Shown here: piece after piece, positions 2 through 59,418 of the stretch
Layout of the letters: every line of letters starts with the position of its first letter
Numbering within the stretch: the first letter of the stretch is position 1
NCBI GenBank assembly: GCA_964415355.1
Contig: CAYPYS010000001.1
Span: forward strand, 1,361-65,360
Reading direction: 5' to 3'
DNA: 64,000 bases
Source of the DNA: an uncultured Planctomycetia bacterium
GTDB taxonomy: Bacteria > Omnitrophota > Gorgyraeia > Gorgyraeales > Gorgyraeaceae
Translations under genes and position numbers: made by a program
The notes under the pieces: generated by a model
The model's input: the letters and a program-made list of their open reading frames with translations, nothing else
Told to the model about the DNA's origin: nothing
Databases searched by the model: none

Positions 2-358
2 GCAAAGATACGAGAGATAGACGAGCAACTATCGCGTCTATTGGATTTGTTTGTGGAGGGTGCGATTTCGGCTGATGAGTATAAAGAAAAAAAGGCCTCG
101 CTTATCAATAAAAAAACACGCCATATAGAAAATCCCGTCAATGCTACCACTGACGGAAAATGGTTAGAACAGATGCGGGATTTTCTAACTCTTGCTCACC
201 AAGCCAGTTACGCCGCGTCGGCGGGGACGGCTGAAGAATTGGCCGATTTTTTTAAAAAAATATGTTCGAACTGCAAGGTCGCCAACGCAACTCTTTATGT
301 TTCTTACAGTTCTGCTTTCAAAATCCTCGCCGAAACCGAAAAAGAACAATTGGGGTAG
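2..358 (+). CDS. recombinase family protein, C-terminal fragment (large serine recombinase-like coiled-coil region); 5' end lies outside the window
   Basis: The reading frame is open from position 2 (AKIREIDEQLSRLLDLFVEGAISADEYKEKK...). The L-x-x-L-Y/F-x-x-G-x-I-S-x-x-E-Y motif is typical of the resolvase/large serine recombinase C-terminus. It is the only plus-strand gene and it abuts tRNA-His. Confidence 0.4.
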   Translation, partial: AKIREIDEQLSRLLDLFVEGAISADEYKEKKASLINKKTRHIENPVNATTDGKWLEQMRDFLTLAHQASYAASAGTAEELADFFKKICSNCKVANATLYVSYSSAFKILAETEKEQLG

Positions 359-428
359 ATGACGGGATTCGAACCCGCGACCCCTAGAACCACAATCTAG
401 TGCTCTATCCAACTGAGCTACATCTACC
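350..428 (-). tRNA. tRNA-His (anticodon GTG) with encoded G-1 and CCA
   Basis: The reverse complement folds as a cloverleaf with acceptor GTAGATG/CATCTAC, anticodon stem CTAGA/TCTAG and loop TTGTGGT. A TTCGAAT T-loop and a 3' CCA are present. Confidence 0.8.
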
Positions 429-20952: not shown

Positions 20953-20991
20953 CTAACTTTACATTTCAACAACGTTAAAATGTAAAGTTAA
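20953..20991. repeat. 39-bp repeat, copy 12 (A)
   Basis: It lies between the AsrB-like gene and the ferredoxin gene. Confidence 0.9.
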
Positions 20992-22865: not shown

Positions 22866-22883
22866 TTGTGAAAATTATCACAA
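22866..22883. promoter_or_regulatory. perfect CRP/FNR-family type palindrome TTGTGA-N6-TCACAA, 25-42 nt upstream of the first gene of the hydrogenase operon
   Basis: TTGTGAaaattaTCACAA is read directly from the sequence. It matches the CRP consensus half-sites TGTGA/TCACA with a 6-bp spacer. Confidence 0.5.
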
Positions 22884-22961
22884 GATTTTGAAAATAAAAA
22901 AAACGAATTAGCCTAAATTATAAAGTCAAAGCTTCTGACTGTCAAGAAAAAAATAACTTTA

Positions 22962-23026
22962 TGTCATTCCCGCGAAAGCGGGAATCCATAATTTCTCTAG
23001 ATTCCCGTTTGCACGGGAATGACAAT
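22962..23026 (-). terminator. two GC hairpins (GTCATTCCCGCGAAAGCGGGAAT and its inverted variant) followed on the minus strand by a U-rich tract; putative terminator after the ferredoxin gene
   Basis: The stems ATTCCCGC/GCGGGAAT and ATTCCCG/CGGGAAT are read directly. GTTATTTTTTTC follows on the transcribed strand about 9 nt after the second stem. Confidence 0.4.
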
Positions 23027-23033
23027 AAATGCT

Positions 23034-23441
23034 TTAAAAATGCAGCTCCATTGCGCGAGGCGGACATGCCTTTATACATAATTCACAGGCTATGCATTCG
23101 GCATTATAAAAATTGACCTTGCGCGTCACTGGATCGATTACAAGCGCGTTCGTCGGACATATCGGAACGCATGCGCCGCAATGCGTGCATTTTTCCTCAT
23201 TCCTCTTTATATCCTTGGAAAGCGGCTGCACTGTCACGCCCAGAGATTTTACAAAATTTATGGCCTTGTCAAAATTTTTCTCTGCGCCAGTCACCTCGAG
23301 GACAAGAAGCCCCTCTTCTTTTGGCGTAACATGTGCCTTTAATATATTAAACTGCAGATCATGATCCTTTACCATCCGGTAAATAATAGGCTGATCCACA
23401 AGTCTATGCGGAAACTTAAATACGATCCTCTTTGAAACCAT
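23034..23441 (-). CDS. 2x[4Fe-4S] ferredoxin with N-terminal NIL-like domain
   Basis: CTHCGACVPICP and CIACELCIKACP motifs are present. Confidence 0.6.
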   Translation of the reverse strand: MVSKRIVFKFPHRLVDQPIIYRMVKDHDLQFNILKAHVTPKEEGLLVLEVTGAEKNFDKAINFVKSLGVTVQPLSKDIKRNEEKCTHCGACVPICPTNALVIDPVTRKVNFYNAECIACELCIKACPPRAMELHF

Positions 23442-23455: not shown

Positions 23456-23494
23456 CTAACTTTACATTTCAACAACGTTAAAGTGTAAAGTTAG
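23456..23494. repeat. 39-bp repeat, copy 13 (A)
   Basis: It lies between the UPF0280-like gene and the ferredoxin-NIL gene. Confidence 0.9.
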
Positions 23495-26710: not shown

Positions 26711-26917
26711 CTATAATTCCGAAAGCATGCGAAGAGTTTCTTCTGCTTTCTCTGGGTTAAGCTTTTCTATTGCAAAGCCAGCGTGCACCATTACATAATC
26801 CCCTATCTTTGGACTGGCCAAAAAATTTATCGCGACTCTGCGCTGCACGCTCCCAGCAGAAACAAGTGCCCTGTCCCCTTCTATTTTTAATATTTTCATC
26901 GGTATTGCCAGGCACAT
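26711..26917 (-). CDS. hypC: hydrogenase maturation protein HypC
   Basis: The protein starts MCLAIP. The track's upstream extension MTKEIY is discarded. Confidence 0.85.
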   Translation of the reverse strand: MCLAIPMKILKIEGDRALVSAGSVQRRVAINFLASPKIGDYVMVHAGFAIEKLNPEKAEETLRMLSEL

Positions 26918-26930
26918 ATATATTTCCTTT

Positions 26931-26953
26931 GTCATTCCCGCGGAAGCGGGAAT
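26931..26953. repeat. GC-hairpin repeat GTCATTCCCGCGGAAGCGGGAAT (copy 3 of 4)
   Basis: The stem TTCCCGC/GCGGGAA has a GRAA loop. It lies 13 nt upstream of the hypC start. Confidence 0.8.
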
Positions 26954-26964
26954 CTATATCTCGT

Positions 26965-27002
26965 TTAACTTTACATTTTAACGTTGTTGAAATGTAAAGT
27001 TA
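26965..27002. repeat. 39-bp repeat, copy 15 (B)
   Basis: It lies between hypF-C and hypC, next to GC hairpin copy 3. Confidence 0.9.
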
Positions 27003-29228: not shown

Positions 29229-29268
29229 CTTAACTTTACACTTTAACGTTGTTGAAATGTAAAGTTAG
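29229..29268. repeat. 39-bp repeat, copy 17 (B), first of an inverted tandem pair
   Basis: CTTAACTTTACACTTTAACGTTGTTGAAATGTAAAGTTAG. Confidence 0.9.
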
Positions 29269-29302
29269 CTAAGTTTACTTTTAACAATGTTAAAGTGTAA
29301 AG

Positions 29303-29306
<4 letters not shown>
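29269..29306. repeat. 39-bp repeat, copy 18 (A-like), second of the inverted tandem pair
   Basis: CTAAGTTTACTTTTAACAATGTTAAAGTGTAAAGTTAT. Confidence 0.85.
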
Positions 29307-36034: not shown

Positions 36035-36072
36035 CTAACTTTACATTTCAACAATGTTAAAGTGTAAAGTTA
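36035..36072. repeat. 39-bp repeat, copy 23 (A)
   Basis: It lies between the two secretin genes. Confidence 0.9.
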
Positions 36073-38796
36073 CTGTTCGCGTATTATCTTTTCGTCTATG
36101 GGCACGCTGGCAACCATGTTCTCTTCTTCGCCCAGGACACTAGCAGTCACGAATATCAATAAATTTCTGCGCTCTACATTATCCGTCTTTTTTCTGAATA
36201 ACCCGCCTACAAATGGAAGGTCGCCCAACACAGGAACCTTTGTCTTTATATTGGTATTTGTCTCCTTTATGAGTCCTCCCATTACAATCGTCTCTCCGCT
36301 ATCGATTATAACACTGGTACTTAAATTCCTTGTCTTAAACTGAGGTATAGAAACCTCTCCCGAATAAGAGAATGTACCAGAATCCTCGCTGACCTCCGGA
36401 GTCAACGCCAATGTTACAGTCTTCTTGTCTGCCCCCACGCTAGGCTTCACATGTAAAAGTATTCCAACGTCCCTGGTAACAAAATCCTGAGGGATATTCG
36501 CCCACTCTGTCTCGCCTGCGTCATCAAAATCTCCATCACCGTTTATGTCAAACTGCACCAGGCTGACCTCATACCTGGTAGGATAGATAAACTCATCTAT
36601 TACTTCTATCGTGGCTGTTTGATTATTTAATGTAGTTATCCTCGGAGCGGATAAAGTCTTTACATTTTGTTTTTCTTTTAAGGCATGCATTACAAACTGA
36701 AACTGCGGATGACTCAGTATCCCTTGATACGTCAGATTAAAACCTTCGGTTGCACGGGTGAAGCTCGAAAAATCCACGCCACTCCCCGAAGCAAACCCAT
36801 GTAAGTTCTGCTTTGAGTTATTTTGCTTAGCGCCCCAGTCGCTGTTTAATTTCCAATCGATGCCCAGCTCATCCACGTCCGTGACCTGCACCTCTAAAAA
36901 TCTCGCTTCAATCAATACCTGTACAGGCGTTACGTCAAGATTATAAAGCAGGTTTTCTACGATCTCTAAATTCGAGGGTATATTGCTTATGATAAGCGCG
37001 CCTGTCCTGTCATCGAGCGTCAACTTTGAATCCTTCGGCCAATCTACCGCGTTTTCAAGTATGTCCTTTACGGTACTGACCTCTGAAGACGAGTCGCCCT
37101 CTTCGCCGGAACTCCCTGAAAGTTCAGCAAATCTACCAATGCCTTGATTCATAAAATAAACCCTGGTCTCTACTTCTTCATTGTCCAGTTCTTCCTTAGT
37201 AGCTACCCATACAGCATCCTCTTCTATTCTGTAAACAAGGTCCTGGGATTTCAGTACATACCTCAGCGCCTCCTCAAGAGGCATGTCTTTTATCTTTATT
37301 GTAACCTTTTTCTCGGCCATATCGATATCGCTCGAAGGTATTATATTGACCCCTGTCGCCTCGGATAGAAAATTCAACACATAATCAAGTTCCACATCTT
37401 TAAAATCTACGCTTAACGGTATTTTTAATCTCTTCCTGATCTCCGGGACCTTTACCAGAGACACTATTTTTTTCTCTTTCTCTAAAATGCCGATCTTTTC
37501 ATCAGGTATAATATGCTTCTTGGCTATTTCCAAAAGCATCTTTGCTTCTACTATCTCGCGAGCCTTTTTAAAGGCCTCTTCCTCTTTTTTTATCTTCTGC
37601 TTATCTACATAATCCTTAACATCCTTAAACCTTCTGTTTTCCGGAAATTCGGCCATCGCTGTCCCGAGCATCTCTTCGGCATCCTCAAACTGCTCCTCCG
37701 CAACATGCACCCTTATGGCCTTCAGCAGCTCTTCTATTCTTGTAATCCTCTCTCTTAATTGCTGCTCCCTGAGCCTCTTTTCAAAAACTACCTTAAGCCT
37801 CTCCTTTTCCCTCTCTTTTTTAGCGCGCTCGGCCTCTTTTATCCTGTCTTCCCGCTCTTTCTCTATCTTTGCGCGCCGCGCCGCCTCCATCTTTGCCATG
37901 ACCGCCCGCTCTTCTTCCCTCTTTATCTCTTTTTGGGCGGATTCAATATAATATTCCGACCTGGAAACCAGGTCATTATCAGGGTCTAATTCCTTTACCT
38001 TTCTGAATTCTGCTATGGCCGTTGGATAATCTCTCATCTTATAATAACTCAGGGCCCTCTCGTATGCACTTTTTGTCTCCCGGGCCAATCTATGTTCTTG
38101 TTTCTTTCTTTCCTGCTCTATCGCCTTAAGGATCATCTCTTCTTCCTGCAATGCCCTCTTGCGAGCTTCTTCCCTCTTTATCTCTATATTCGCTTTTTGT
38201 ATATAAGATTCGGCCTCGGTTACAAAACGACTTTCTGGATCCAGATTTTTTATTTTTTTAAAATTCATTACCGCAAGAGCATATTTTTCATCAATATAAT
38301 ACTCGAGGGCCTTTTCATATGTATTTTCTATTTCCCGCGCGAGCTTTCTTTGTCCCTGCTCTATCGCCTTTAGCCTGTTTTCTTCCTCGACCAAAGCCCT
38401 CTCTTGCGCCTGTTGCTTTGCCAGCTCTTCTTCTTTAGCTATGCGCTCCGCCTCGCTTATTACGTCCTCCTCCATCCTCTGCCATCTCCTGTCCTCTAAT
38501 ACGCTCATCTCTTTTATTCTGGACCTGGACTTATCGATATATATCTCTGCGAAAGGCGTAAAATAAGACTCTCCCTGCGTCTTTTCCATCTCTATGATAT
38601 TCTCAAAAACAGAAATCGCCTCTTTATATCTTCCTGTCTCAAACAAGGACATCGCCTTTTCAAAATACTTCTTCAAATCCACTTTTGAAACCGAGATATT
38701 TTTGTTACTATATAGAGCGGTTTTGGCCAAGGCAAACGCCTGCCCGTTCGATAACAAAAGTGACAATATTAATATTATGCTTAAAATCTTTTTCAT
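36070..38796 (-). CDS. secretin (PilQ/GspD family) with ~600-aa N-terminal coiled-coil/TPR-like repeat extension
   Basis: The C-terminal 450 aa are paralogous to the adjacent secretin (PVLGDLPFVGGLFRKKTDNVERRNLLIFVTASVL). The N-terminal region has an internally repeated module (YEKALEYY...IKREEARKRALQEEE). Confidence 0.8.
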   Translation of the reverse strand: MKKILSIILILSLLLSNGQAFALAKTALYSNKNISVSKVDLKKYFEKAMSLFETGRYKEAISVFENIIEMEKTQGESYFTPFAEIYIDKSRSRIKEMSVLEDRRWQRMEEDVISEAERIAKEEELAKQQAQERALVEEENRLKAIEQGQRKLAREIENTYEKALEYYIDEKYALAVMNFKKIKNLDPESRFVTEAESYIQKANIEIKREEARKRALQEEEMILKAIEQERKKQEHRLARETKSAYERALSYYKMRDYPTAIAEFRKVKELDPDNDLVSRSEYYIESAQKEIKREEERAVMAKMEAARRAKIEKEREDRIKEAERAKKEREKERLKVVFEKRLREQQLRERITRIEELLKAIRVHVAEEQFEDAEEMLGTAMAEFPENRRFKDVKDYVDKQKIKKEEEAFKKAREIVEAKMLLEIAKKHIIPDEKIGILEKEKKIVSLVKVPEIRKRLKIPLSVDFKDVELDYVLNFLSEATGVNIIPSSDIDMAEKKVTIKIKDMPLEEALRYVLKSQDLVYRIEEDAVWVATKEELDNEEVETRVYFMNQGIGRFAELSGSSGEEGDSSSEVSTVKDILENAVDWPKDSKLTLDDRTGALIISNIPSNLEIVENLLYNLDVTPVQVLIEARFLEVQVTDVDELGIDWKLNSDWGAKQNNSKQNLHGFASGSGVDFSSFTRATEGFNLTYQGILSHPQFQFVMHALKEKQNVKTLSAPRITTLNNQTATIEVIDEFIYPTRYEVSLVQFDINGDGDFDDAGETEWANIPQDFVTRDVGILLHVKPSVGADKKTVTLALTPEVSEDSGTFSYSGEVSIPQFKTRNLSTSVIIDSGETIVMGGLIKETNTNIKTKVPVLGDLPFVGGLFRKKTDNVERRNLLIFVTASVLGEEENMVASVPIDEKIIREQ

Positions 38797-39323
38797 TCTC
38801 GTGCTCCGGGTTTTTCCTTCTTGGCTTTGAGGATTATTTCCTCTCCGCCTTTTTTCTGAAGCGCGACCTCTTTCTCGCTGATGCGTAAAACCTCGAAATC
38901 TCCAACCTTGCCGCCAGCCTCCGCAAAATAGCTTTTCCCCGTGCCCTGGTCTTCTATCACAACCATTATCTTCTCGCCCATCACTACCCTGCCTTTATAC
39001 TTCAGCACTGGTTCTTTCTTTTCTTCTTTCACAGCAATAGGCTCGACCACTACAATAGACTCACCCCTGACTCTAAAAAACGGGCTCCTCTTCAAAAGGG
39101 CTTTATAGCCGTCTGCTGCATCCTGCTCCTTAATAATACCGAAATCCCACTTATCTTTAAGCTGGGCCTTTTTCTTGGCCCTGCTCTTTTTCGTCGCAAG
39201 CTCTATCTCCTGCAGCAACTCCTGGGTTGCCTCCTTCTTTTTACCCTGCGAGAAAAACCCAAAAAGCAGCACCCCTATAAATACAGCGACAAGCGGCCAG
39301 AAAATAATCTTTTCTTTTATCAT
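38793..39323 (-). CDS. PilP-like pilus assembly lipoprotein (tentative)
   Basis: An N-terminal TM is followed by a C-terminal beta domain (YKGRVVMGEKIMVVIEDQGTGKSYFAEAGGKVGDFEVLRISEKEVAL). Confidence 0.4.
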   Translation of the reverse strand: MIKEKIIFWPLVAVFIGVLLFGFFSQGKKKEATQELLQEIELATKKSRAKKKAQLKDKWDFGIIKEQDAADGYKALLKRSPFFRVRGESIVVVEPIAVKEEKKEPVLKYKGRVVMGEKIMVVIEDQGTGKSYFAEAGGKVGDFEVLRISEKEVALQKKGGEEIILKAKKEKPGARE

Positions 39324-40084
39324 CCCTTTTCCGTCCTAGTCACCATGAATGTGCTCAAAACCAGGCTTACCTCTATATCGCTCTCTATTCCTTCAGAGCT
39401 TTTTAAATGTAGCTCTTTGACCGAGATCACAGGTGTTCTATTCTTAAGCTCCAGCAAAAGATTTACAAGCGATTCCGTATCCGTCTTCACTGAAAACTGC
39501 ACCGGCAATTCAGTGTAAAGCACCTCTTTGCTCAATGGCTCTATATAATCTATTGACCTCAACGGCTTTATCGCAGAAAATTCTATGTTCTCGCTCTCCA
39601 GTAATATGCCGACCGCGAGCTCCACTGTCTCCAGTTGCCTAAGAAGCGCCTCGACCATGCTATTTTTAGGGAGTCCGTCCCCAAAGCCTAGATTCTCAGG
39701 AAGCCCGACCTCTTTTGACGAAGCCTTTTCTGAAAATTTCTTCATCGACGCGTGCAGCCTCTCTATAAAATAAAGGCCTGCCTCGCTGCTCGAATCAGAA
39801 ATCCTGACCTTCGCAGGATCTACAAAATCTACGAGTTCCTGAAATTTATTATCCAGCTCCAATTTTTTTTCTTCGATCTTTTCAAAGCTATCCTTTGACG
39901 GCAGAGAACCTGTTCGCGCTATATATTTCTTTATCTCTACGGTTTTACGCTCAAGTTCGTCATCCAATATAGAGCTGCCTTCATTCATAAGCGGTCCTAA
40001 TACGAAAAGATACAGGGCCAATAATATGCCTATCACTATCGAGCCTTGTTTTAAAATAGCTTTTTCTTTCGCTGTTTTAAACAT
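39320..40084 (-). CDS. PilO-like pilus assembly protein (tentative)
   Basis: An N-terminal TM is followed by a coiled coil and a ferredoxin-like region. Position next to the PilM-N fusion supports the call. Confidence 0.4.
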   Translation of the reverse strand: MFKTAKEKAILKQGSIVIGILLALYLFVLGPLMNEGSSILDDELERKTVEIKKYIARTGSLPSKDSFEKIEEKKLELDNKFQELVDFVDPAKVRISDSSSEAGLYFIERLHASMKKFSEKASSKEVGLPENLGFGDGLPKNSMVEALLRQLETVELAVGILLESENIEFSAIKPLRSIDYIEPLSKEVLYTELPVQFSVKTDTESLVNLLLELKNRTPVISVKELHLKSSEGIESDIEVSLVLSTFMVTRTEKG

Positions 40085-40086
40085 CC

Positions 40087-41610
40087 CTAGCTCTCCGTCA
40101 CCACGTCCATGGTAATATTAAACTTTACTGTTTCCTCACCTGTCTTCTCGTCCACTTCCAGAGACGAGGATATCGGCTTTACATCTTCAAAGCTGGGAGA
40201 GGATTTCAGAGAAGATACAAATGAATTAACCGCCTGGTACGAAAGCGCCTTGCCTCCCAGGTCCAATCTGGCAAGTCCCCCTTTTTCCATGGAAACTATG
40301 CCCGATGCATCCGTAATCCAGACCTCTTCGGACAGTATCTCTGAAATAATACCAAGCACATCCAGCCAGATCGCCCTGGAGGAAGCCTGGTGATACAAGA
40401 TATCTATCTTTTCCATTAACACGTCTTCCTTGTCCTGCATCTTTTTTATCTTTGGTTCATAGGTCCTGTATACCTCAAGCATCTCGTCTACTTTATTCAT
40501 CTTGAGTCTCTTTACAGAATAATCCTGCCTCATAAATATAGAAAAACATATAAGCGTCAATGCCGCTACGGCAATAGAAAAACGGGAATATAATACCTTC
40601 TGACTATATGCATGTCTTTCGGAGATCATCTCTTTTAAAAAATTCACCTCTATCTTTAGATCTGTCATGCCCCTAAGCGCAAGCCCGATCGCAACGCCCA
40701 ACTGATTCTTAACCGTCTTCTTTGTCTCTAGATCCGAGAAGATTTCCTTTGAGATCCTTATCTTTCTAAACGGGTCCAGTATTTTAGCCTGGGTCTTGAA
40801 CTTGGACATAAGCTTTTGTTCCAATTCCTCGATCGCGCTGCCTCCGCCTGTCAAAAGCAACTCATCCAGTTTTTTTCCGCCTTGAGCATCCTCTCCGCTC
40901 TGCATAAAATAATATTCTATGGAACGTTCCACCTCTCCGATTATCTCTTCTATGCCCTGATCCTTTGACTCAGCAATCCTGTTCCCGGCTACAGGAAAAC
41001 TCCTGACCCATATATTATTCTTTTGAAAAATAACCAGGTTGGTAGTATTAGCGCCTATGTCCAATATAGCGCCCAGTTTTTCCCTGCTATAATCTTCATT
41101 GAATACCATGCAGTTATATAAACTTATAGGTTCGACATCTATTAAATCAGTAGAAAGCCTTATCGAATCCAACCTCGAGATTATATCCTCTATGATGTTT
41201 TTCTTGATGGCTACCACTACTGCCTTTTTTGTGCCTTTTTCTTCCCTGTCAAGCAATGACCAGTCCCAGGCCACTTCTGTCAGCGGAAAAGGTATCTGAT
41301 TCTGAGCTTCAAACTTCATAGTCTGCTTCAATTTATCTTCCTTGACCTGCAGGAGTTTTACGAATCTTATAAAGACAGATTGGCCCCCGACAGAGACATT
41401 TACGTGCTTCTCTTTGACATTGTTTTCGGATAACAGCTGAGATATTAGCTGAGTAATCGCCTTCTCCTTGTCAGCCTTTAAATTACTTGGTATCTCTTTG
41501 ACCCCGAATCTATTCAAGGTGATAGCATCTCCTGACCGGGCGAGTTCTGCAAATTTTATATAATGAGACCCTATATCCAATCCTATAGAGGTCTTCTTAA
41601 GCTTAGGCAT
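40087..41610 (-). CDS. PilM-PilN fusion protein (actin-like ATPase plus TM/coiled-coil PilN part)
   Basis: IGLDIGSHYIKFA is the PilM N-terminus. A C-terminal TM segment VAALTLICFSIF follows. Confidence 0.6.
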   Translation of the reverse strand: MPKLKKTSIGLDIGSHYIKFAELARSGDAITLNRFGVKEIPSNLKADKEKAITQLISQLLSENNVKEKHVNVSVGGQSVFIRFVKLLQVKEDKLKQTMKFEAQNQIPFPLTEVAWDWSLLDREEKGTKKAVVVAIKKNIIEDIISRLDSIRLSTDLIDVEPISLYNCMVFNEDYSREKLGAILDIGANTTNLVIFQKNNIWVRSFPVAGNRIAESKDQGIEEIIGEVERSIEYYFMQSGEDAQGGKKLDELLLTGGGSAIEELEQKLMSKFKTQAKILDPFRKIRISKEIFSDLETKKTVKNQLGVAIGLALRGMTDLKIEVNFLKEMISERHAYSQKVLYSRFSIAVAALTLICFSIFMRQDYSVKRLKMNKVDEMLEVYRTYEPKIKKMQDKEDVLMEKIDILYHQASSRAIWLDVLGIISEILSEEVWITDASGIVSMEKGGLARLDLGGKALSYQAVNSFVSSLKSSPSFEDVKPISSSLEVDEKTGEETVKFNITMDVVTES

Positions 41611-41828
41611 TATCTGTTCCTTCCGATTATATCTTTTAGCTTCCGTATTTCACTGGTAGTGTATTCCCGCCAGCCATTTACAGCATTGCGCTTGGGCTTC
41701 GGGAATACCTTTTTGTTCTCGTAGCGTATCAATGTCTGCTTGGATATCCCCAGAAACTCTGCGGCCTCTGTAGCGGAATAGAATTTTTCTCTCTTCATAA
41801 GCATCACCTCGCTCATTTGCATCTCCAT
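41610..41828 (-). CDS. small MerR/excisionase-type HTH DNA-binding protein
   Basis: YSATEAAEFLGISKQTLIRYENK is HTH-like. The gene overlaps the pilMN start by 1 nt. Confidence 0.55.
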   Translation of the reverse strand: MEMQMSEVMLMKREKFYSATEAAEFLGISKQTLIRYENKKVFPKPKRNAVNGWREYTTSEIRKLKDIIGRNR

Positions 41829-41912
41829 ACAATATTAGATATAATAACTTGATATACCCTGATAGCGCGTGATACAACTATATACTATCAAGTAGAATTT
41901 GTCAAGAGAGGG

Positions 41913-41951
41913 ACTAACTTTACATTTCAACAATGTTAAAGTGTAAACTTA
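41913..41951. repeat. 39-bp repeat, copy 24 (A)
   Basis: It lies between the 607-aa secreted protein gene and the HTH gene. Confidence 0.9.
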
Positions 41952-41961
41952 CGCGGGTGGG

Positions 41962-43785
41962 TTATTCTTCTTTCCAGAATCTGAAGGGCTTTTTCTTTAA
42001 TTTCTCTGGAATAATAAAGCTCTTTTTGCCTATGGTCCAGGTCCTCTCTGCCGGCACAGGGTCTATTTCGTCTTCGTCGATCTCTTCGTTGTTATTAACG
42101 TCCTTGGCAGCCTGTACCTTGAAATAATGATTGCCCTGGGCCAGATCTTCTTTGCGAATAGAGTCTTCTGCCGACCATTCTGACCATTCTTCATTGTCAA
42201 ACTTATACCTGAATATGCAATCAGACGCTGTAGCCTTAAAAGTAAATAACGCGCTTGTGGCCTTTGTGACCGCGCTCGGCCCGCTGGTAATTATAGTATC
42301 AGGGGCAGTTATAATAAGCTCTATAGTATCACTGAATATCTCTGATTCGTTGCCAGCAGTATCCTTGAATTTCACATAGACCTTGCGCGTGCCGCTTATG
42401 GCAGGCAATGCCCAATTATCCTTGTTCGCGGCAAAGGTTTCCCATGCCTCTGTATCAAAAACGCCATCATTGGAAATAGACATGCTCTGGACTTCTGTTA
42501 TGGAATCGCTGGCACTCAAAATAAGATCCACGTAGATTGAATTTGTCAATGCGTCCTGATTATTAATAATAATAGTGCCTGTGGGCGGCCTTGTATCAAC
42601 CGTAAAACTCCAGACCAGAGGCGAAGTGGCGTTTCCAACAAAGTCGCTGACTTCCAGGGATACTACATTGTCTCCTTCGCTCAAAGGAATGGACGGTATA
42701 TATACAACGCTCTGAGCCCCTTCGTCATAAGTTGCTGCTGCAGAAGATTTGTTTACTGTCATATCTATGGCATCCGGGTTAATGCCGCTATACTCATCTG
42801 AAGCATCGATCGAAATAGTAGGAGTATCCGTAGATATAATAATGCCATTTGTAGGCGTATACGAACCTACTGAAGGCGCAGTCCTATCTACCCAAATCTC
42901 AAAGGAAGCTACCTCTGTCCAATTTTTGGCCGTATTCTGACCCTTTAGGTTAAACACCCTTATGCCATCTGATAAAAGATCGCCCGGCGTCTGGTACGAG
43001 AAGCCCGTAGTATCGATCTCATCATCTGGTATGCTGCCCCAAGAAAAACTATAGCCAACCAAGTCTGCCCCGGTCACTGGATATTCCCAATACATATAAG
43101 GATTCCCGCAATCCTGCCATAACTTCGCGGGCACATCGTCGCCCACGGCAGAGACCCTTGCCCAGATTATAGGTGTTTCTATATCTGCAGCGGTAAGCCT
43201 GAATCCAGACGTAGCTACCTGCCAACCAGAATAATCAAAACCATCGCTGGTCCTGACGCGCCACCTGTAGCTCACCCCGGCCTCATCAGTAGGAAGTATA
43301 GGCGTTGTGTAACTGGTGTCGCTCGAAGAGATCAACCCGGAGTCAATCACAGTCGTAACAAAATTATCCTTTGAGACCTGGACCTGATAATAGCGCTGGG
43401 TGTCATCGTCTTTATCGCTGTAATTCCATTCGAGGCTGGGCGTGTCATCTACGGTCAACTCGCCATCATTAAAAGAAGCGATCGCGACTTCGGGAATAGT
43501 ATTATAGGTAGGCAGGCCTCCGCCGTATATCTTGTAATTTGTCCCTGTAGCAACAGCTGTCGCCACAGGAGAACCCATGCTGTTCTCGGAATTATAACTG
43601 GTGGAAGCAGTGCTAGTGCCTCCGCCGTCTGCTATTGTCGTCTGGAGTTTATAATTATCACTGCTCGAAACCGCTGCCAAGGATACGCTGCAGCAAATAA
43701 AAAAGACCGCTATAAAAAATACAGCGGCCTTAAATACAGAGATATCACTCCTGCATCTCATCATAATATATATTATAATACTCAA
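41962..43785 (-). CDS. secreted hypothetical protein (signal peptide; Ser/Thr-rich N-region)
   Basis: 607 aa with an N-terminal hydrophobic leader. I recognise no family. Confidence 0.4.
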   Translation of the reverse strand: MSIIIYIMMRCRSDISVFKAAVFFIAVFFICCSVSLAAVSSSDNYKLQTTIADGGGTSTASTSYNSENSMGSPVATAVATGTNYKIYGGGLPTYNTIPEVAIASFNDGELTVDDTPSLEWNYSDKDDDTQRYYQVQVSKDNFVTTVIDSGLISSSDTSYTTPILPTDEAGVSYRWRVRTSDGFDYSGWQVATSGFRLTAADIETPIIWARVSAVGDDVPAKLWQDCGNPYMYWEYPVTGADLVGYSFSWGSIPDDEIDTTGFSYQTPGDLLSDGIRVFNLKGQNTAKNWTEVASFEIWVDRTAPSVGSYTPTNGIIISTDTPTISIDASDEYSGINPDAIDMTVNKSSAAATYDEGAQSVVYIPSIPLSEGDNVVSLEVSDFVGNATSPLVWSFTVDTRPPTGTIIINNQDALTNSIYVDLILSASDSITEVQSMSISNDGVFDTEAWETFAANKDNWALPAISGTRKVYVKFKDTAGNESEIFSDTIELIITAPDTIITSGPSAVTKATSALFTFKATASDCIFRYKFDNEEWSEWSAEDSIRKEDLAQGNHYFKVQAAKDVNNNEEIDEDEIDPVPAERTWTIGKKSFIIPEKLKKKPFRFWKEE

Positions 43786-43802
43786 ACCCAGGAAATCAAG
43801 CG

Positions 43803-43841
43803 CTAACTTTACATTTTAACGTTGTTGAAATGTAAAGTTAG
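43803..43841. repeat. 39-bp repeat, copy 25 (B)
   Basis: It lies between the giant GspK-like gene and the 607-aa protein gene. Confidence 0.9.
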
Positions 43842-46800
43842 CGCTCGAAAACAACCCAGATCTTCTTTTCAGAAAGCACCCTGTCTTCGTCCAGTGTCTG
43901 GGCAGTTACAATTATCCTATATACATCTGAATGAACAGTGACCAGGTTTGAGATCTGTCTGAATCTATCTCTCTTATCCTCGTCTTCTCTACCCAAGGCG
44001 TCTGTAGAAATCAGGTCGCCTATACCAAGACGAAGACCATTATTGTCGCCAAATATTCTATTTGCAACTATGTCATCTGCGATGCCCTCGTCTATCCCCG
44101 GGAGCGCACTGAGCACTTTTTTAGAAGCTGTGTTGATGTTTATCTTGCCGTCGATAGTATTTACCGGGTCAAGCCTTATAAAATCAAAATGCGCTCCTCC
44201 TGTCTTTGAAACATTTTTTATCTTCAGCTCAAGCTCATTGCTCGGCGTGGAGACTTCGCTATCTGTTCCTATCTCTATATTCCCAAAAAGCACGCTTCCG
44301 CCTGGCCCAGGACTAAGCGGAGGCGTAAACGCAGTCCACGTATCGTCAGCAAGATGTAACGACACTGCGATCTCTTCTTCCTCTTCTCCAAATATCCTTA
44401 ATGTATAATACCCGTTTCTAATTCCGTCTTTTTCTTCCCATCGCCATACGCCAACCGAATCTCCTTCTCCTTCCTCCTCCTCATCGTCTTCTTCGCTTTC
44501 GGCAGCCTCACCATTCTCAAAATGATCAGTCAAAGGTGATGCCCTCTGAACCATTTTCCATGCACCTTCAGAACCAGGCACGATATGGTCCTCTGCCTCA
44601 AGTCTTATGCCAAAAACCGTCAATCTATCGGCTATCTTGGATACATCCTCTAAAGGCACGGCATCCCACTCTTTAAGGCCGGATGAAACAAAACCTATCT
44701 CGCCAACTGATGAAAAATTCTTATTCTTTACAACTACCTCTGTGATGTCGTGCTCTATTATCTCTTTTTCAATCTGGCCTTCCACCTCTATCTCTTCTAT
44801 CATCCCTTCATTATCATTTGGCAAACCAGGAGTTGCGCCATCTTCTGCGTCTGATGTATACCAACCTTCGGGGATACCATTTAGATTTGAATCAACTACA
44901 TAGCTGGGATCTGACCGCTCCAGACTTTTATTCGCAGGGATCCCACCGCTAAAATATTCCGCTGCGTCAACAATGTGGCCCATTGGATCTTTTAGAGTTA
45001 TGATATTTCCGTCAGGGTGCGGCTCGTTAGAGAGTAAATCAGAGCCCGGCACAACTGCTTTTACAAAATGAAGCTCGGCTGATTTTTCCTGTCCCCATAT
45101 AGACACAAACGATATATCGTTTCCCTGGATGCCGTCCTGCGAATCATCTCTATCAACGCAGAGCACAAGGTGCTCGTCCGGGCCAATGACCGTGCCGAGC
45201 GGAATAGACGCTGGCCAGCCCTGCTTGCTCGGGCCCTCGACGCTCCAGCCGCCAAGATTCACCTCGTTGGATGTGAGATTTACGAGCTCGATGTATTCAG
45301 CGTCTGGCTCCTGTGTCAATTCTATTGACTGAAAATAAGCGGACCCTGAATTCAGATTATTTTGCACTCTCACCGTGATCTTTTCATTAGAGACAGTAAT
45401 AGTCTTGCCGCCTCCGAACAATTCTCCGTCCAACATGTCTCTTGAGCGAGCGCCTCCTATCTCTACATCCCCCACCTCTTGACCCTGCATGCCAAACACC
45501 TTTACATAATATTGGCCGTTCGGCACACCCTGCCAGGTCCAATCCCCTTCGCCGGTCTTGCCGCCATTAGGTTCATCATTCTGAAAATAACTGCCCTGCC
45601 AGGTCCAATCCCCTCCGGGATCCTGTCCGTTAAAACTAGCCAATGAAGTGCTGGGCCTTGCCATTATTTCATTGATCCTTATACCCTCCACGCCCCGGAC
45701 CTCGACAGCACTAAAGCCTTCCTGTCCTAACCTGGGATATAATTCCAGATAGGAAAAATAACAGACTTCGTCTTCCTCTTTATTTTCCACTGTCAATTCG
45801 AGCATGTCCCTCTCTTCAAAAGAAACAGTGCCTATCCTTAATATCTCGCCGTGCCTCACTGAACCCTGACTCACACCATTAATGGCAACATCCCCTACGT
45901 ATTCACCCGCGACGCCGAACACGCCGATATAAAATTCCCCCTCGGGTAAATTCAACCACGTGATTACCAAAGGCTCGCTATCTTCGACATCGCTTTCATA
46001 GTGTCCGCCCCTCCAAACCCAATCACCTATGGGGCCTCTGTTCACAGCGCTCAGCCTATTGTATAGCTTCGACACCACGCTCTGACTGAAATCTTCGTCG
46101 CATGCATCTATTATGTTCACTGCTTTTTGAAACGGGTCACTTGCGCCTGCGTCTTCGAGGAGAACTAAAAGCGTAGCAGCGTCCATAAAATTTATGTTTT
46201 CCCTGAGCCTTCCTTCTACGTCTAAATTTTTATCCGGAGAGTACGAGGTAATATAAGGGTATATCTTTGTAAAATCACTTTCTTTTATGGATTGGATTTT
46301 GGCTAGTTCAAAAGGTGTTTCGAACGCATTGTCATCCGCGTACGGAGAAGATGGGACAAATTCCATTGGCTCGTCAATGCCTTCGCCCGCCTCGTCTATT
46401 ATGCCGTCCGCATTGTTGTCTATGCCGTCCGCGGCCAGGATCCTTTGGTTATCATTGTCATCCACCCCCATCTCTCCAGGCTCGCCGTCCAGGCCCAACC
46501 TGTGATCCAATATATCTTCGTATGTTTTCTGGGAATCACTCAACTCAAAAGAGGCGAGGAACGATTGGAGATCGAGTTCGTGCGGTGTCCAGCCTTCTGT
46601 AACCTTCAGTGGAGAGATATTTTGTTTGTCAGCGATGTTTATGTTTAGAAAACCTGACTCGTCCCTGACTAAAACAGCGTAACGACCGATAGGCTCATTC
46701 AGATCATCGTAAACATATATCCATTTTGAATCAAGCTCGCCGTCGCCGTCATTGTCGACATCAAAGCCCTCGAAAAGCGTAGCCCATGCGTCTTGGAAGC

Positions 46801-47023
46801 TATCGATATCCGGTTCGTCTTCCTTTATCACAGCCTGGGCATAGGTAACGCCGGACTCTGCAAGATACGAGGCTCGTGTCGCTTCTAAAAAGTTGGAGGC
46901 GGATTTCAACTCAAGCCTCATGGTAAAAGCAAAAGACACGGCCATTATGCCAGCGACCGCAAGTATGCTCACGACCAGTATAAGAGCGATACCTTTATTA
47001 TTACTATTACCCATGTCCCTCAT
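43838..47023 (-). CDS. giant GspK/PilX-like minor pseudopilin (1061 aa) with C-terminal helix-hairpin-helix
   Basis: The N-terminus GIALILVVSILAVAGIMAVSF is a pseudopilin-like TM. The C-terminus ININTASKKVLSALPGIDEGIADDIVANR is an HhH as in GspK/ComEA. Confidence 0.5.
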   Translation of the reverse strand: MRDMGNSNNKGIALILVVSILAVAGIMAVSFAFTMRLELKSASNFLEATRASYLAESGVTYAQAVIKEDEPDIDSFQDAWATLFEGFDVDNDGDGELDSKWIYVYDDLNEPIGRYAVLVRDESGFLNINIADKQNISPLKVTEGWTPHELDLQSFLASFELSDSQKTYEDILDHRLGLDGEPGEMGVDDNDNQRILAADGIDNNADGIIDEAGEGIDEPMEFVPSSPYADDNAFETPFELAKIQSIKESDFTKIYPYITSYSPDKNLDVEGRLRENINFMDAATLLVLLEDAGASDPFQKAVNIIDACDEDFSQSVVSKLYNRLSAVNRGPIGDWVWRGGHYESDVEDSEPLVITWLNLPEGEFYIGVFGVAGEYVGDVAINGVSQGSVRHGEILRIGTVSFEERDMLELTVENKEEDEVCYFSYLELYPRLGQEGFSAVEVRGVEGIRINEIMARPSTSLASFNGQDPGGDWTWQGSYFQNDEPNGGKTGEGDWTWQGVPNGQYYVKVFGMQGQEVGDVEIGGARSRDMLDGELFGGGKTITVSNEKITVRVQNNLNSGSAYFQSIELTQEPDAEYIELVNLTSNEVNLGGWSVEGPSKQGWPASIPLGTVIGPDEHLVLCVDRDDSQDGIQGNDISFVSIWGQEKSAELHFVKAVVPGSDLLSNEPHPDGNIITLKDPMGHIVDAAEYFSGGIPANKSLERSDPSYVVDSNLNGIPEGWYTSDAEDGATPGLPNDNEGMIEEIEVEGQIEKEIIEHDITEVVVKNKNFSSVGEIGFVSSGLKEWDAVPLEDVSKIADRLTVFGIRLEAEDHIVPGSEGAWKMVQRASPLTDHFENGEAAESEEDDEEEEGEGDSVGVWRWEEKDGIRNGYYTLRIFGEEEEEIAVSLHLADDTWTAFTPPLSPGPGGSVLFGNIEIGTDSEVSTPSNELELKIKNVSKTGGAHFDFIRLDPVNTIDGKININTASKKVLSALPGIDEGIADDIVANRIFGDNNGLRLGIGDLISTDALGREDEDKRDRFRQISNLVTVHSDVYRIIVTAQTLDEDRVLSEKKIWVVFER

Positions 47024-47053
47024 TTTACCCTAACTCGTCCAAACTGACAATCC

Positions 47054-47092
47054 CTAACTTTACATTTCAACAACGTTAAAGTGTAAAGTTAG
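47054..47092. repeat. 39-bp repeat, copy 26 (A)
   Basis: It lies upstream of the GspK-like gene, next to the terminator. Confidence 0.9.
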
Positions 47093-47093
47093 C

Positions 47094-47133
47094 GCAAAAA
47101 AATCCCTGCGCCTCCTAAAAGGAAGCGCAGGGT
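47094..47133 (-). terminator. rho-independent terminator after the MscS-like gene
   Basis: On the minus strand CCCTGCGC-N13-GCGCAGGG is followed by TTTTTTT. Confidence 0.6.
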
Positions 47134-47176
47134 CAAAACTTAAAACAAAATCACGTTGTAAAAATATCAATGCCCG

Positions 47177-47851
47177 CTATTTGCCCTTAACCTTATTCAC
47201 TAAATCCTGTATCATTTTCCCAGCAATATCCTTTGAGCCAAGACCGACAGCTATTGCCAGCGCCAGACCAAAAGAGGCAAGGATAATATTGATGGCAAAA
47301 TTCAGGACAGACGACGCGATATTCAGCTGTTCTAATGTTATTATAGATGCGAATATCATGATAAGCGTCTGCGTTAACTGGCCTAAAAACTTTGCCTGCG
47401 TGATCCCTGCGTTACTGGAGGCAGTGCGAACTATGGTGCCGATCATGCTGGAGAAGAATATACCCAGGGCCAGTATAAACACAGCCGCAATTACATTAGG
47501 TATATACAGAATGACCTTGTCGAGCAATGAAGCCGCCACTGTCATCCCAAGGGCATTTAAGGCAGTCATAAACACCATTAACATTATCAGCCAATAAATA
47601 AGTACGCCTATCAACTCAGAAAGAGTCTGCCTTATGCCGCCGCGCCTCAACACATCGCCAAGACCTGCCTTCTCACTCGCAGTGTCCAGCTGGATCAGCT
47701 TCAACACCTTTACCACTAGACTTTTAAGCATCCCCGCTATGATCCATCCTACTATAAGTATTATAAGGACGCCTAGAAGCGTAGGTAAAAATCCAGCTAT
47801 CCTCCCCAGCATCTCTGCTACTGGAGTCATAACCACAGCATTCCAATCCAT
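47177..47851 (-). CDS. MscS-related 'conserved TM helix' repeat membrane protein
   Basis: A four-TM protein with repeated TM-helix modules, resembling the N-terminal module of small mechanosensitive channels. Confidence 0.45.
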   Translation of the reverse strand: MDWNAVVMTPVAEMLGRIAGFLPTLLGVLIILIVGWIIAGMLKSLVVKVLKLIQLDTASEKAGLGDVLRRGGIRQTLSELIGVLIYWLIMLMVFMTALNALGMTVAASLLDKVILYIPNVIAAVFILALGIFFSSMIGTIVRTASSNAGITQAKFLGQLTQTLIMIFASIITLEQLNIASSVLNFAINIILASFGLALAIAVGLGSKDIAGKMIQDLVNKVKGK

Positions 47852-47921
47852 ACGTCACCTCCCTTTCTCTAAAGAGTGAAGTATACCTTATCAACTCCCA
47901 ATCGTCAAGGGTAGCGAGCCT

Positions 47922-47945
47922 ATGTCATTCCCGCGAAAGCGGGAA
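47922..47945. repeat. GC-hairpin repeat ATGTCATTCCCGCGAAAGCGGGAATCCATAA (copy 4 of 4; 31 nt identical to the copy at 22961-22991)
   Basis: Read directly from the sequence. It lies between the MscS-like gene start and the GT9 gene end. Confidence 0.8.
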
Positions 47946-47948
47946 TCC

Positions 47949-47985
47949 ATAAAATGCCTAAGCTTACTTTCAACAATGTTAAATG
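47949..47985. repeat. 39-bp repeat, copy 27 (degenerate, A-like)
   Basis: CTAAGCTTACTTTCAACAATGTTAAATGTAAACTTAG lies next to GC hairpin copy 4. Confidence 0.75.
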
Positions 47986-47990
47986 TAAAC

Positions 47991-49196
47991 TTAGGTGGAG
48001 AGGAAGGATTTGACTTTTTTAAAGATGTCTTCGGGCTTGATATTTTTTAAGCAAATGCCTTCTTTGCACGGCGATTTTCTGTGATTATAGACATTCAGGC
48101 AGGGACTGCAGACCAAATCTGAATCTATAGATATTTTGTCGCTATCTCCTTCTCCGTATAAACGAGACGTCTCTGGTCCGAAAAGTATTATGACTTTTAT
48201 GGGAACCAGGGTCGAAAAATGAGCCGGTCCGCTGTCGCTCGTCACCAATAAATCTGCGACACAGTACAAAGTCAAAAGTTCTCTCAGCGAAGTCTCTCCG
48301 GCGAGAGAAATCGCGTCCCCCATCCTATATGCCAGCATCTTGCCCTTTTCTTTTTCTCCGGCAACGCCTGTAATGATAATGGTCGCGCGGGGAAATTCTT
48401 GCAAAATCATCCTCGCCAGTTTCACATAGTTTTCTTCAGGCCAACGCCTCACCTGCAACAGATCATCCATGTCAGGATTCAAAAGTACTATTGGGCTGGT
48501 CAGGTTTGACTTTTTCACGCCCTCGATTTTTTTTACCAGCGCACTTTTCTCGCTTTCACTGGGGGAAAAAACAGGAAGTCCTTCGGTCACATCCGGGGTC
48601 TTAAAGCACATGGGTTTATTATCAGGCGACGGGCAATGATTAAGGGCCTCTACCAATGTTGCGAACAAGACCCTTGTGTGCAGGTATGGATTATATACAA
48701 GCCTGTGAGTAAAAAGATCTCCTCTATAAGGGCCTTCGCAGGTGAACAAGTGAAACCCGACTCTCTTATCAGCCCCGGAAAGATACGAAAGGATAGCAGA
48801 GCCCCTGGAGAAAAATTCCATATCTATGGCAGCGTCTATTTTTTCTTTCCTGATTCTCGCAAGTGCCTTTATCAAGGACAAAATCATGCCGCCAGGAGAG
48901 CTCGGATCTATCTCTATTATATTTTGCGACGGCAGTATATCGAATATATCCAATATATGGCGGTTTTCTTTAAAGACTAAAAAATAAAGATTATCTTTCC
49001 CCACCATACCAGCTGCCTTTTTTAACGCCTGATAGGCGAGCATCGTGGAACCCTGCTCTATTAATTTTATGAAGAGGATTTTGGAGGGATGGCCTGTGTC
49101 TTCGTTATCTTTTTTAAGATTTCTACACACCGTGAGCAAAAAACAAAACACGCTGCCGACGTTCCTGTCTAACCACCGAATAACTCCCTGATTCAT
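47991..49196 (-). CDS. glycosyltransferase family 9 (heptosyltransferase-like)
   Basis: The GT9 fold is present (ILFIKLIEQGS...GPETSRLYGEGD). The start is moved to MNQGVIRW past the repeat artefact. Confidence 0.65.
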   Translation of the reverse strand: MNQGVIRWLDRNVGSVFCFLLTVCRNLKKDNEDTGHPSKILFIKLIEQGSTMLAYQALKKAAGMVGKDNLYFLVFKENRHILDIFDILPSQNIIEIDPSSPGGMILSLIKALARIRKEKIDAAIDMEFFSRGSAILSYLSGADKRVGFHLFTCEGPYRGDLFTHRLVYNPYLHTRVLFATLVEALNHCPSPDNKPMCFKTPDVTEGLPVFSPSESEKSALVKKIEGVKKSNLTSPIVLLNPDMDDLLQVRRWPEENYVKLARMILQEFPRATIIITGVAGEKEKGKMLAYRMGDAISLAGETSLRELLTLYCVADLLVTSDSGPAHFSTLVPIKVIILFGPETSRLYGEGDSDKISIDSDLVCSPCLNVYNHRKSPCKEGICLKNIKPEDIFKKVKSFLST

Positions 49197-49233
49197 GTCA
49201 CTATTGTAACCTGCGCTAATAGGGATTTCAACC

Positions 49234-49272
49234 TTAACTTTACACTTTAACATTGTTGAAGTGTATACTTAG
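49234..49272. repeat. 39-bp repeat, copy 28 (B variant), first of an inverted tandem pair
   Basis: TTAACTTTACACTTTAACATTGTTGAAGTGTATACTTAG. Confidence 0.85.
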
Positions 49273-49311
49273 GTAACTTTACATTTCAACAATGTTAAAG
49301 TGTAAAGTTAG
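49273..49311. repeat. 39-bp repeat, copy 29 (A), second of the inverted tandem pair
   Basis: GTAACTTTACATTTCAACAATGTTAAAGTGTAAAGTTAG. Confidence 0.9.
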
Positions 49312-49751
49312 TATTGGGGGAGGGTGAGGGTGTGGTTTTGTTCGCCGTCGGTGAGAACCACTTTGTCTTTTTTTATCTCCGCTACAGCATACCCGCCGAT
49401 CTTATCTCCTACCCCCACTAGATTATCGTTTATCATGGCAAGAGGCGCACTGTCATCCCAGAGTATGCCTGTCAAGACCATGTCAGAAAGAGTTGCCGGC
49501 TCAGAGGTCGATGGACCAGAGGAAAATGGGTCACGGCCCCAGTCAGAAAAATCAGTCCTTCTCGGCCGTTTTGTATTAGAGGTAATATTTATTTCTGCAG
49601 TAACTGCTCTTTGCTTTTTAATGTCCGCAGGCTTATTGGAAAGCTCACGTCTTACTTTTGAAGGAGTAAGTATGCCATAAATCAAACTGCAAACAGCTGC
49701 GATCCCTAAAACAATCAATAAGATCAATTTTTTATTCTGCATTTTAGTCAC
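49308..49751 (-). CDS. PilP-like protein (tentative)
   Basis: An N-terminal TM is followed by the C-domain LTGILWDDSAPLAMINDNLVGVGDKIGGYAVAEIKKDKVVL, which is PilP/GspC-like. Confidence 0.45.
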   Translation of the reverse strand: MTKMQNKKLILLIVLGIAAVCSLIYGILTPSKVRRELSNKPADIKKQRAVTAEINITSNTKRPRRTDFSDWGRDPFSSGPSTSEPATLSDMVLTGILWDDSAPLAMINDNLVGVGDKIGGYAVAEIKKDKVVLTDGEQNHTLTLPQY

Positions 49752-50265
49752 CCGAAAGGCACATATTTACCGTCAAGACAGCATTTATCCTTCCTGCCTT
49801 GTCTGTGTCAGAACTTAGATTAAGTTCTTTTACTGTAACCAGGCTTTTTTCCAGCTTTTCCAGTGAGCCTAAAAATATAAAAAATTCTTTATATGTCGAG
49901 TTTAGCTTTATATCTATAGGCAGGATCTTATACTTGGAATCCTTTGAGTCCTTTATTTTCCCAGGAGCAATAGAGATAAAATTAATACCCTTTGATCTGC
50001 CTTGTTTGGTAAATTCATCTATTGCTATAGATATATCTTTTTCGGATATCAGCACCCTCTTCGTTCCGGACTGCCTTAAAGCATCTATTGCCTCGCGCGC
50101 CCGCAATGCCTCTGCCTCGATATTTCTACATTCACCTCTTGCCAGGCTGCATTTATTGATAAGCGGCCTGTACAGAAAAAGGTATAACCCGAGAACAAAA
50201 ATCACCCCCGCGCTTACTATTATCATCGGCCTTTCTCGAATCTTAACCCATAAGACGTGACCCAT
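49744..50265 (-). CDS. PilO-like protein (tentative)
   Basis: An N-terminal TM is followed by a coiled coil. The gene lies downstream of the PilM-N fusion. Confidence 0.45.
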   Translation of the reverse strand: MGHVLWVKIRERPMIIVSAGVIFVLGLYLFLYRPLINKCSLARGECRNIEAEALRAREAIDALRQSGTKRVLISEKDISIAIDEFTKQGRSKGINFISIAPGKIKDSKDSKYKILPIDIKLNSTYKEFFIFLGSLEKLEKSLVTVKELNLSSDTDKAGRINAVLTVNMCLSGD

Positions 50266-50280
50266 AACTTATAATTCCTT

Positions 50281-51873: not shown

Positions 51874-51908
51874 ATATTATTCACGAGTCACGAACTATTA
51901 GGTAACTA

Positions 51909-53620: not shown

Positions 53621-53629
53621 ATCAGCTTA

Positions 53630-53977: not shown

Positions 53978-53979
53978 AT

Positions 53980-54429: not shown

Positions 54430-54454
54430 CCCCCTCCCCTTTCTTTTTTTATTA

Positions 54455-57363: not shown

Positions 57364-57372
57364 CTTCTCCCG

Positions 57373-58604: not shown

Positions 58605-58616
58605 ATATTCGTCATC

Positions 58617-59398: not shown

Positions 59399-59418
59399 AA
59401 CACCCTCTCTTTATGCCG

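Follow-up and report, generated by a model that had tools for sequence, protein, structure and literature searches.

Why does a G+C-rich hairpin recur between the genes of a DNA stretch that averages ~43% G+C? The window, as we call the whole 64-kb stretch analyzed here, has its genes on the − strand, and the original prediction had picked out from it a repeat family built on such a hairpin, with terminator-like features at the site where two copies form a doublet. We find that the window hairpins are very probably copies of the NTS/SRM family, an oriented hairpin repeat of ~28 nt that consists of a 5′ GTC, an 8-bp stem, a G-N-A-R loop, and a 3′ C. Membership rests on sequence, structure, the orienting flanks, and location. 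The assignment places a puzzling G+C-rich hairpin in a family with a known protein partner and guards against its mistaken annotation as a spurious ORF, a small-RNA gene, or a terminator.

Hairpin copies in the window

All four predicted copies are present. With up to one mismatch allowed, ATTCCC-N8-GGGAAT occurs four times in the 64 kb against 0.16 expected from dinucleotide-preserving shuffles, none of which (0 of 100) held four matches; TTCCCGC-N4-GCGGGAA occurs three times against 0.01 expected. Copy 1 (22962-22989, + strand; TGTCATTCCCGCGAAAGCGGGAATCCAT) and copy 2 (22997-23024, − strand; TGTCATTCCCGTGCAAACGGGAATCTAG when read on that strand) lie tail-to-tail; the predicted pair stands, with its end moved from 23026 to 23024. 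Their predicted single-stranded DNA (ssDNA) folds reach −9.9 kcal/mol (z = −4.7) and −7.8 kcal/mol, respectively. The hairpin itself was correctly recognized, with a stem of 8 bp (ATTCCCGC/GCGGGAAT) in place of the 7 bp of TTCCCGC/GCGGGAA. Copy 2 is indeed inverted and has a different loop, a description that left out its closing pair, which is T-A as a compensated change from C-G.

Copy 3 (26930-26957, +; TGTCATTCCCGCGGAAGCGGGAATCTAT) occupies the spacer that separates the end of hypF_C (stop at 26971) from the start of hypC (26917). Copy 4 was located at 47923-47950 (+), 1-2 nt off the 47922-47945 first given for it (GTCATTCC begins at 47924), between the stop of a glycosyltransferase-9 gene (47991) and the promoter and start (47851) of an MscS-like gene. 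The block that it shares with copy 1 is identical as predicted and measures 32 nt instead of 31 (TATGTCATTCCCGCGAAAGCGGGAATCCATAA; 22960-22991 and 47921-47952), which suggests recent copying. A fifth copy (CGTCATTCCCGCGTAAGCGGGAATCCAA; L262:6428-6455), with GTC and C kept, was found just beyond the window, and very many other genomes carry the motif, in line with the census proposed earlier. The stretch derives from a metagenomic population represented, for example, by JGI contig Ga0118727_1000707 (85.5 kb). The source contig thus holds five copies in ~74 kb (the 64-kb window plus ~10 kb added via edge genes), and all five are intergenic.

A candidate sixth copy at 41663-41706 was rejected, as its ATTCCCG and CGGGAAT fall within the ORF of a small helix-turn-helix protein. 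This lone ORF of ~60 aa (41620-41800, −), amid pilus genes, encodes a MerR/excisionase-like protein, and its two heptamers are coding coincidences rather than a hairpin copy. The JGI call for HypC (74 aa) begins at an ATG inside copy 3 (26917-26935); the family-typical MCLAIP start at 26917 and a sister protein of 62 aa point to an over-extended start call caused by the repeat. A gene for a large serine recombinase (L266:11009-12445; Resolvase/Recombinase/Zn_ribbon_recom, 478 aa), located just past the position-1 end of the window, abuts a tRNA-His/tRNA-Arg/tRNA-Pro cluster, with tRNA-His at window positions 351-427, an arrangement that suggests an integrated element starting just outside the window.

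As predicted, two of the copies sit beside a 39-bp element: for copies 3 and 4 alike, the distance to a 39-nt palindrome is 8 nt. This AT-rich palindrome of 37-39 nt (TAACTTTACATTTCAACAACGTTAAAGTGTAAAGTTA) occurs at least 32 times in the 64 kb, in both orientations of its asymmetric center, as at 20954-20990, 23457-23493, 26966-27002, and 29231-29305 (two in tandem). It occupies roughly every second intergenic spacer and greatly outnumbers the NTS hairpin; with respect to the coding strand, it falls between the stop of one gene, which it sometimes overlaps, and the ribosome-binding site (RBS) of the next. The 12-nt arms recur with a different center in a sister lineage (L272:9743-9785), and the palindrome is shared by a GTDB metagenome-assembled genome (MAG) labelled "uncultured Planctomycetia." None was found in two more distant relatives, and IMG/VR returned no match. 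We rejected the idea that hairpin and palindrome form a composite element: the intervening spacers differ in sequence, the doublet has no adjoining palindrome, and about half of all spacers have a palindrome anyway.

Probable assignment to the NTS/SRM family

The original prediction had advised a check against known motifs, and this was the decisive step, as a full-text search with the core sequence led to a description of the family (PMC11893778). Chenal et al. (2025) define the Neisseria Transformation Sequence (NTS) as CGTCATTCCCGCGMAVGCGGGAATCYRG, a 28-nt hairpin that encloses the older dRS3 repeat ATTCCC-N8-GGGAAT (PMC11893778). SsnA, a GIY-YIG protein of 95-105 aa, binds and cuts the NTS as single-stranded DNA only and on the forward strand only; GTC, the trinucleotide directly 5′ of the palindrome, matters most for cleavage, and the C just after the palindrome for binding (PMC11893778). 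NTS-like Ssn-related motifs (SRM) flank ssn genes in several phyla, and the association with ssn is strongest in genomes with more than 200 motif copies (PMC11893778). The palindromic core was first catalogued in Neisseria as dRS3, which is cited as the target of a phage recombinase (PMC11893778).

That study counts as NTS any sequence with at most one mismatch to CGTCATTCCCGCGMAVGCGGGAATCYRG, or alternatively applies a degenerate SRM pattern (PMC11893778). Copies 1-4 differ from the 28-nt NTS at 2, 3, 3, and 2 positions (26/28 identical in copy 1, 25/28 in copies 2 and 3) and therefore fall outside the strict one-mismatch definition, while three of the four, copies 1 and 2 among them, fit the published SRM pattern. 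The mismatches lie at the outermost positions, in the loop, and in one compensated pair, and the 20-nt palindromic core ATTCCC-N8-GGGAAT has no mismatch in any of the four. All five copies of the organism keep the GTC before and the C after the palindrome, positions that are 95-97% conserved among 164 variant copies from unrelated contigs. The window hairpins combine an SRM match (in three of the four), an 8-bp stem kept through compensatory change, the GTC and C flanks, and a location outside coding sequence.

Covariation and single-strand folding

A search of IMG/VR and of metagenome contigs for the exact core gave a set of 240 contigs (27-70% G+C). A metagenome scan with the exact 28-mer returned at least 120 contigs, also of 27-70% G+C, and the window organism was absent among the matches listed. 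The 240 contigs yielded 474 NTS-like copies, including 164 distinct 28-mers independent of the search patterns. Double changes in the stems of these 164 variants left the bases paired in 148 cases and unpaired in 4. In an alignment of 150 sequences, 94.2% of the cells were paired, as against 83.4% after shuffling and 22-48% with slid partners; double-change cells numbered 135 versus 27 in shuffles, and none of 500 shuffles scored as high.

Outside the stem, the near-invariant unpaired positions are G2, T3, C4, G13, A15, and C25. The loops GCAG, GAAG, and GAAA are common among the 164 variants, and the near invariance of G13 and A15 makes the rule G-N-A-R. The GNRA-like tetraloop of the original prediction does not survive this comparison, being a coincidence of the GAAA and GGAA variants in the window. 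As single-stranded DNA, the window copies fold at −7.8 to −9.9 kcal/mol (z = −4 to −5). Folded as one long hairpin, the doublet reaches −21 to −23 kcal/mol as DNA and −44 kcal/mol (z = −5.8) as RNA of the − strand. We take GCGAAAGC to be a classic DNA mini-hairpin of unusual stability, which fits a role in single-stranded DNA. The most fitting view of the element is that of a DNA feature, a single-strand hairpin site in the NTS/SRM family, rather than that of an RNA motif.

Insertion of the doublet

A search with HypD, which is encoded beside copy 3 and has its closest named homologues in Candidatus Omnitrophota, located syntenic loci in three related lineages (L272, L303, and L304; HypD identity 72-75%). 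An origin in Scalindua (anammox) was considered first and abandoned in view of these named homologues. No NTS-like sequence is present in these syntenic loci, including the sites of the doublet and of copy 3. Aligned with L272, the doublet site shows a clean 76-nt gap that corresponds to window positions 22955-23030, with the NIL/ferredoxin stop codon on one side of it and a conserved TTGACA-17-TATAAT promoter on the other. The doublet is likewise absent in L303 and L304, and copy 3 is absent from the hypF_C/hypC spacer of all three lineages, where the gene order is the same. The copies missing from these syntenic sisters are therefore gains in the lineage of the window. The 76-nt unit comprises copies 1 and 2 tail-to-tail, a 7-nt spacer, and 6-7 nt of flank next to both 28-mers, which extends the inverted repeat and so indicates that the unit arrived as one piece. 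No target-site duplication was seen at the 76-nt insertion in the alignment with L272. That the doublet was inserted as one unit, at a site left empty in each of the three sister lineages, fits mobility of these repeats and adds to the 2025 description.

The promoter next to the doublet (22917-22945, −) is of the sigma-70 type, matches the consensus at 12/12 positions, lies 16 nt from the doublet, belongs to the downstream operon, and is conserved in all three sister lineages. Two −35 hexamers, TTGACA in the interval 22940-22962 and TTGACG in 47903-47923, begin 14-16 nt downstream of the ends of the doublet and of copy 4, respectively, which places both hairpin elements at the position of an UP element. 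Preferential insertion or an influence on the promoters might explain this placement; with two cases, chance is also possible. Between the TTGACA-17-TATAAT promoter and the start of the Fer4_22/FAD-binding/hydrogenase operon lies a CRP/FNR-type palindrome, TGTGATAATTTTCACA (~22872-22887, − strand context), which is conserved in all four lineages compared and is probably the operator for a regulator of the CRP/FNR family.

Pair geometry and ssn genes

Among the 474 copies from outside the window, neighboring pairs are convergent in 92 cases, divergent in 40, and tandem in 35, for which random orientation would give 1:1:2. Tail-to-tail is accordingly the arrangement most often seen in pairs. In convergent pairs, the gaps fall mainly at 7-26 and 46-50 nt, and the window pair is convergent with a gap of 7. 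Of the 240 contigs, which had been fetched by the motif alone, 5 have a GIY-YIG ORF (PF01541, E 1e-13 to 2e-16) as an immediate neighbor of the motif. We also retrieved 30 ssn loci by protein similarity; about half have a forward copy before the gene, ending ~14 nt from it, and a reverse copy 4-34 nt after it. As the geometry is the same, the window pair looks like an NTS-ssn-NTS unit without the gene, and it resembles, by analogy, a REPIN or MITE doublet.

Across a broader neighbor census of 145 ORFs next to the motif, none of the 86 Pfam families recurred more than twice, so scattered copies have no preferred neighbor. We searched for ssn by six-frame regular expressions and phmmer with consensus sequences, and found no ssn (cd10448-type) or other GIY-YIG gene in the 64-kb window, in the ~10 kb of source contig added to it, or in the ~100 kb read from the related MAG. 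The same ~100 kb (at least 15 GTDB stretches listed, found with the 39-nt palindrome as a tag) contains no NTS copies. A profile search of a 5.8-billion-protein database returned only Sphingomonadales-like sequences among its best 120 and was uninformative for the lineage. No ssn gene was thus found in the ~175 kb of this lineage examined, and a working Ssn partnership in this organism is putative. In a metagenome contig of 40% G+C, an ssn-like GIY-YIG gene that lacks the N-terminal GIY part (L251:1921-2337) is followed by three tandem NTS copies at 57-58-nt spacing; copies of its own repeat have apparently broken up this gene.

Alternative explanations

The hairpins, and above all the doublet, could instead be intrinsic terminators or stabilizers of mRNA 3′ ends, comparable to the protection of upstream transcripts by REP/BIME elements. 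On the transcribed strand, the doublet begins 9 nt past the stop codon of the NIL/Fer4 gene, folds into the −44 kcal/mol RNA described above, and is followed by a U7 run (T7 at 22947-22953, −), with the perfect promoter of the next operon just beyond; copy 4 likewise lies between a gene end and a promoter. The U-rich tract of the original prediction is real, but a simple scan for consensus terminators called none of the copies, and the run occurs at this one site, with no U-run after copies 3 and 4. The U7 lies 8 nt from the G+C stem (or ~2 nt after a weak A-U extension), belongs to the context outside the inserted element, and is older than the insertion. T-rich stretches precede the −35 box in the three sister lineages too, where the same gene junction has no hairpin at all, which indicates that the U-run is ancestral and that the junction works without a hairpin.

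The other copies fit a terminator poorly. Copy 3 is internal to the hyp operon, has no U-run, and is 13 nt away from the hypC start downstream of it, and copy 5 precedes the next start codon by 14 nt, where its 3′ flank overlaps the likely RBS (AAGGA). The 28-mer is found in either orientation relative to transcription, with copy 5 facing the opposite way, and a terminator has no need of the non-palindromic GTC and C flanks that are conserved across phyla. As an account of the family, we consider termination or 3′-end stabilization improbable. At its single site, the doublet with the U7 run behind it might nonetheless terminate transcription, and a terminating or stabilizing effect there is possible as a by-product.

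Mobile elements of other kinds fare worse. A REP/REPIN family spread by RAYT, an IS200/IS605-like Y1 transposase, would account for short intergenic palindromes, for inverted doublets that fold into a longer hairpin, and for the insertion of a doublet without an obvious target duplication. REP elements typically carry the 5′ tetranucleotide GT[AG]G, however, and the 5′ flank here is GTCA. The gene that recurs beside the motif is a GIY-YIG nuclease, the 145 neighboring ORFs contain no recurrent transposase family, and phmmer with RAYT and IS200 queries found no Y1 transposase either in the window or across the motif-bearing loci (~2 Mb), a weak negative. This origin is very unlikely. We give as little credence to the Neisseria precedent, a dRS3-type attachment site that serves a filamentous prophage or an IS110/Piv-like recombinase. 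The core ATTCCC-N8-GGGAAT is that of dRS3, the cited target of a phage recombinase, but no IS110-type or phage gene lies next to any copy, the copies occupy tight housekeeping spacers, and the inserted unit measures just 76 nt. Neither an IS110-type gene nor a Y1 transposase was found in the ~74 kb of source contig or in the ~100 kb of the related MAG.

The covariance check proposed in the original prediction returned no known motif: at the gathering threshold, Rfam reported three tRNAs only for the whole window and no family for the hairpin, and permissive matches to WsnRNA46 and FtrB fell in the doublet region (22943-23044). Least probable of all is a doublet that constitutes a small-RNA gene of the WsnRNA46/FtrB type, for although FtrB is an experimentally detected RNA of 115 nt whose Northern probe contains GTCATTCCCGCGTAGGCGGGAATC, the scores (33.2 bits, E 2e-5, for WsnRNA46; 28.2 bits for FtrB) are about half of the gathering thresholds (65.3 and 66), the similarity is limited to the shared repeat ends and the doublet geometry, and the doublet is a lineage-specific insertion with no evident promoter of its own. 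In sum, the window hairpin does not belong with the REP/RAYT elements, is probably no canonical terminator, and scores below the threshold of every Rfam family.

Proposed mechanism

For NTS/SRM copies in the window, a mechanism can be sketched by extension from the published biochemistry. When the strand that carries the forward motif becomes single-stranded, as during DNA uptake, replication, or conjugation, it would fold into the hairpin. An Ssn-type GIY-YIG nuclease could then dock on the stem and the 3′ C and nick a few nucleotides 5′ of GTC, as would follow from the reported activity of SsnA (PMC11893778). Such nicking would restrict recombination when the incoming single strands contain the motif. 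More speculatively, it might open a single-strand route by which the element spreads to further intergenic positions, in the manner of REP/RAYT and IS200/IS605. Any 3′-end protection of transcripts or weak termination at the doublet would be a by-product.

The doublet may accordingly be pictured as a non-autonomous mobile element, that is, a gene-less NTS-ssn-NTS unit copied in trans by Ssn on single-stranded DNA. We offer this as a tentative idea with a fairly low chance of being right, and Ssn-driven mobilization is put forward as a hypothesis in the source paper as well (PMC11893778). If the idea is true, Ssn would be the enzyme of an unrecognized GIY-YIG-based system of single-strand transposition, parallel to RAYT/REPIN, and the clean insertion described above, with its empty counterpart sites, would rank with the earliest direct traces of such mobility.

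The window also encodes two type-IV-pilus/T2SS-like clusters (~36070-53105 and 53000-60000) with PilM/N/O, a PilB/MshE-like ATPase, PilC, pseudopilins, and two secretins, as well as a 1061-aa protein with LTD, HHH_3, and T2SSK signatures; dprA lies nearer the window start. The pilus/T2SS clusters and DprA may form a DNA-uptake apparatus relevant to an Ssn-type system, a gene content that is compatible with uptake and is not evidence for it.

Comparison with known systems

REP/REPIN elements and RAYT share with the present family short intergenic hairpins, inverted doublets, a probable single-strand biology, and one associated gene bracketed by repeats. They differ in that the associated gene here is a GIY-YIG nuclease instead of a Y1 transposase, with another conserved flank and no RAYT found in the loci searched. 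Closer in sequence is dRS3 of pathogenic Neisseria, whose 20-nt palindromic core is the same in all four window copies. As defined in Neisseria, dRS3 flanks mosaic intergenic elements and serves as a target for prophage integration, and neither context applies here.

Two Rfam families resemble the doublet in part. The consensus of WsnRNA46 (RF02625, Wolbachia) is a convergent pair of Wolbachia SRM hairpins, and the likeness lies in the long hairpin that such a pair forms; for FtrB (RF02748, Francisella), it lies in GTCATTCCCGCGTAGGCGGGAATC. The center and flanks of both are unrelated to the window doublet. Judged by sequence, both families appear to be built on NTS/SRM hairpins, a link that the Ssn paper does not mention (PMC11893778). 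Two Rfam small-RNA families on the same repeat would be an addition to the 2025 description.

The nearest relatives remain the NTS/SRM repeats themselves, which the window copies match at 25-26 of 28 positions, in the 8-bp stem, in the G-N-A-R loop, in the GTC and C flanks, in their intergenic sites, and in convergent doublets with the geometry of the copies that bracket ssn genes. Compared with the NTS, the window copies have T for C at position 1 and T or A for G at position 28, and copy 3 has G at a loop position where the consensus is A or C. The copy number here looks low, and ssn was not found in the ~175 kb of the lineage examined. The host differs as well, being an uncultured member of the PVC group whose closest named relatives, Candidatus Omnitrophota, go unmentioned in the published description (PMC11893778). 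In this respect, our assignment goes beyond the 2025 description and extends the family to an uncultured PVC/Omnitrophota-like lineage.
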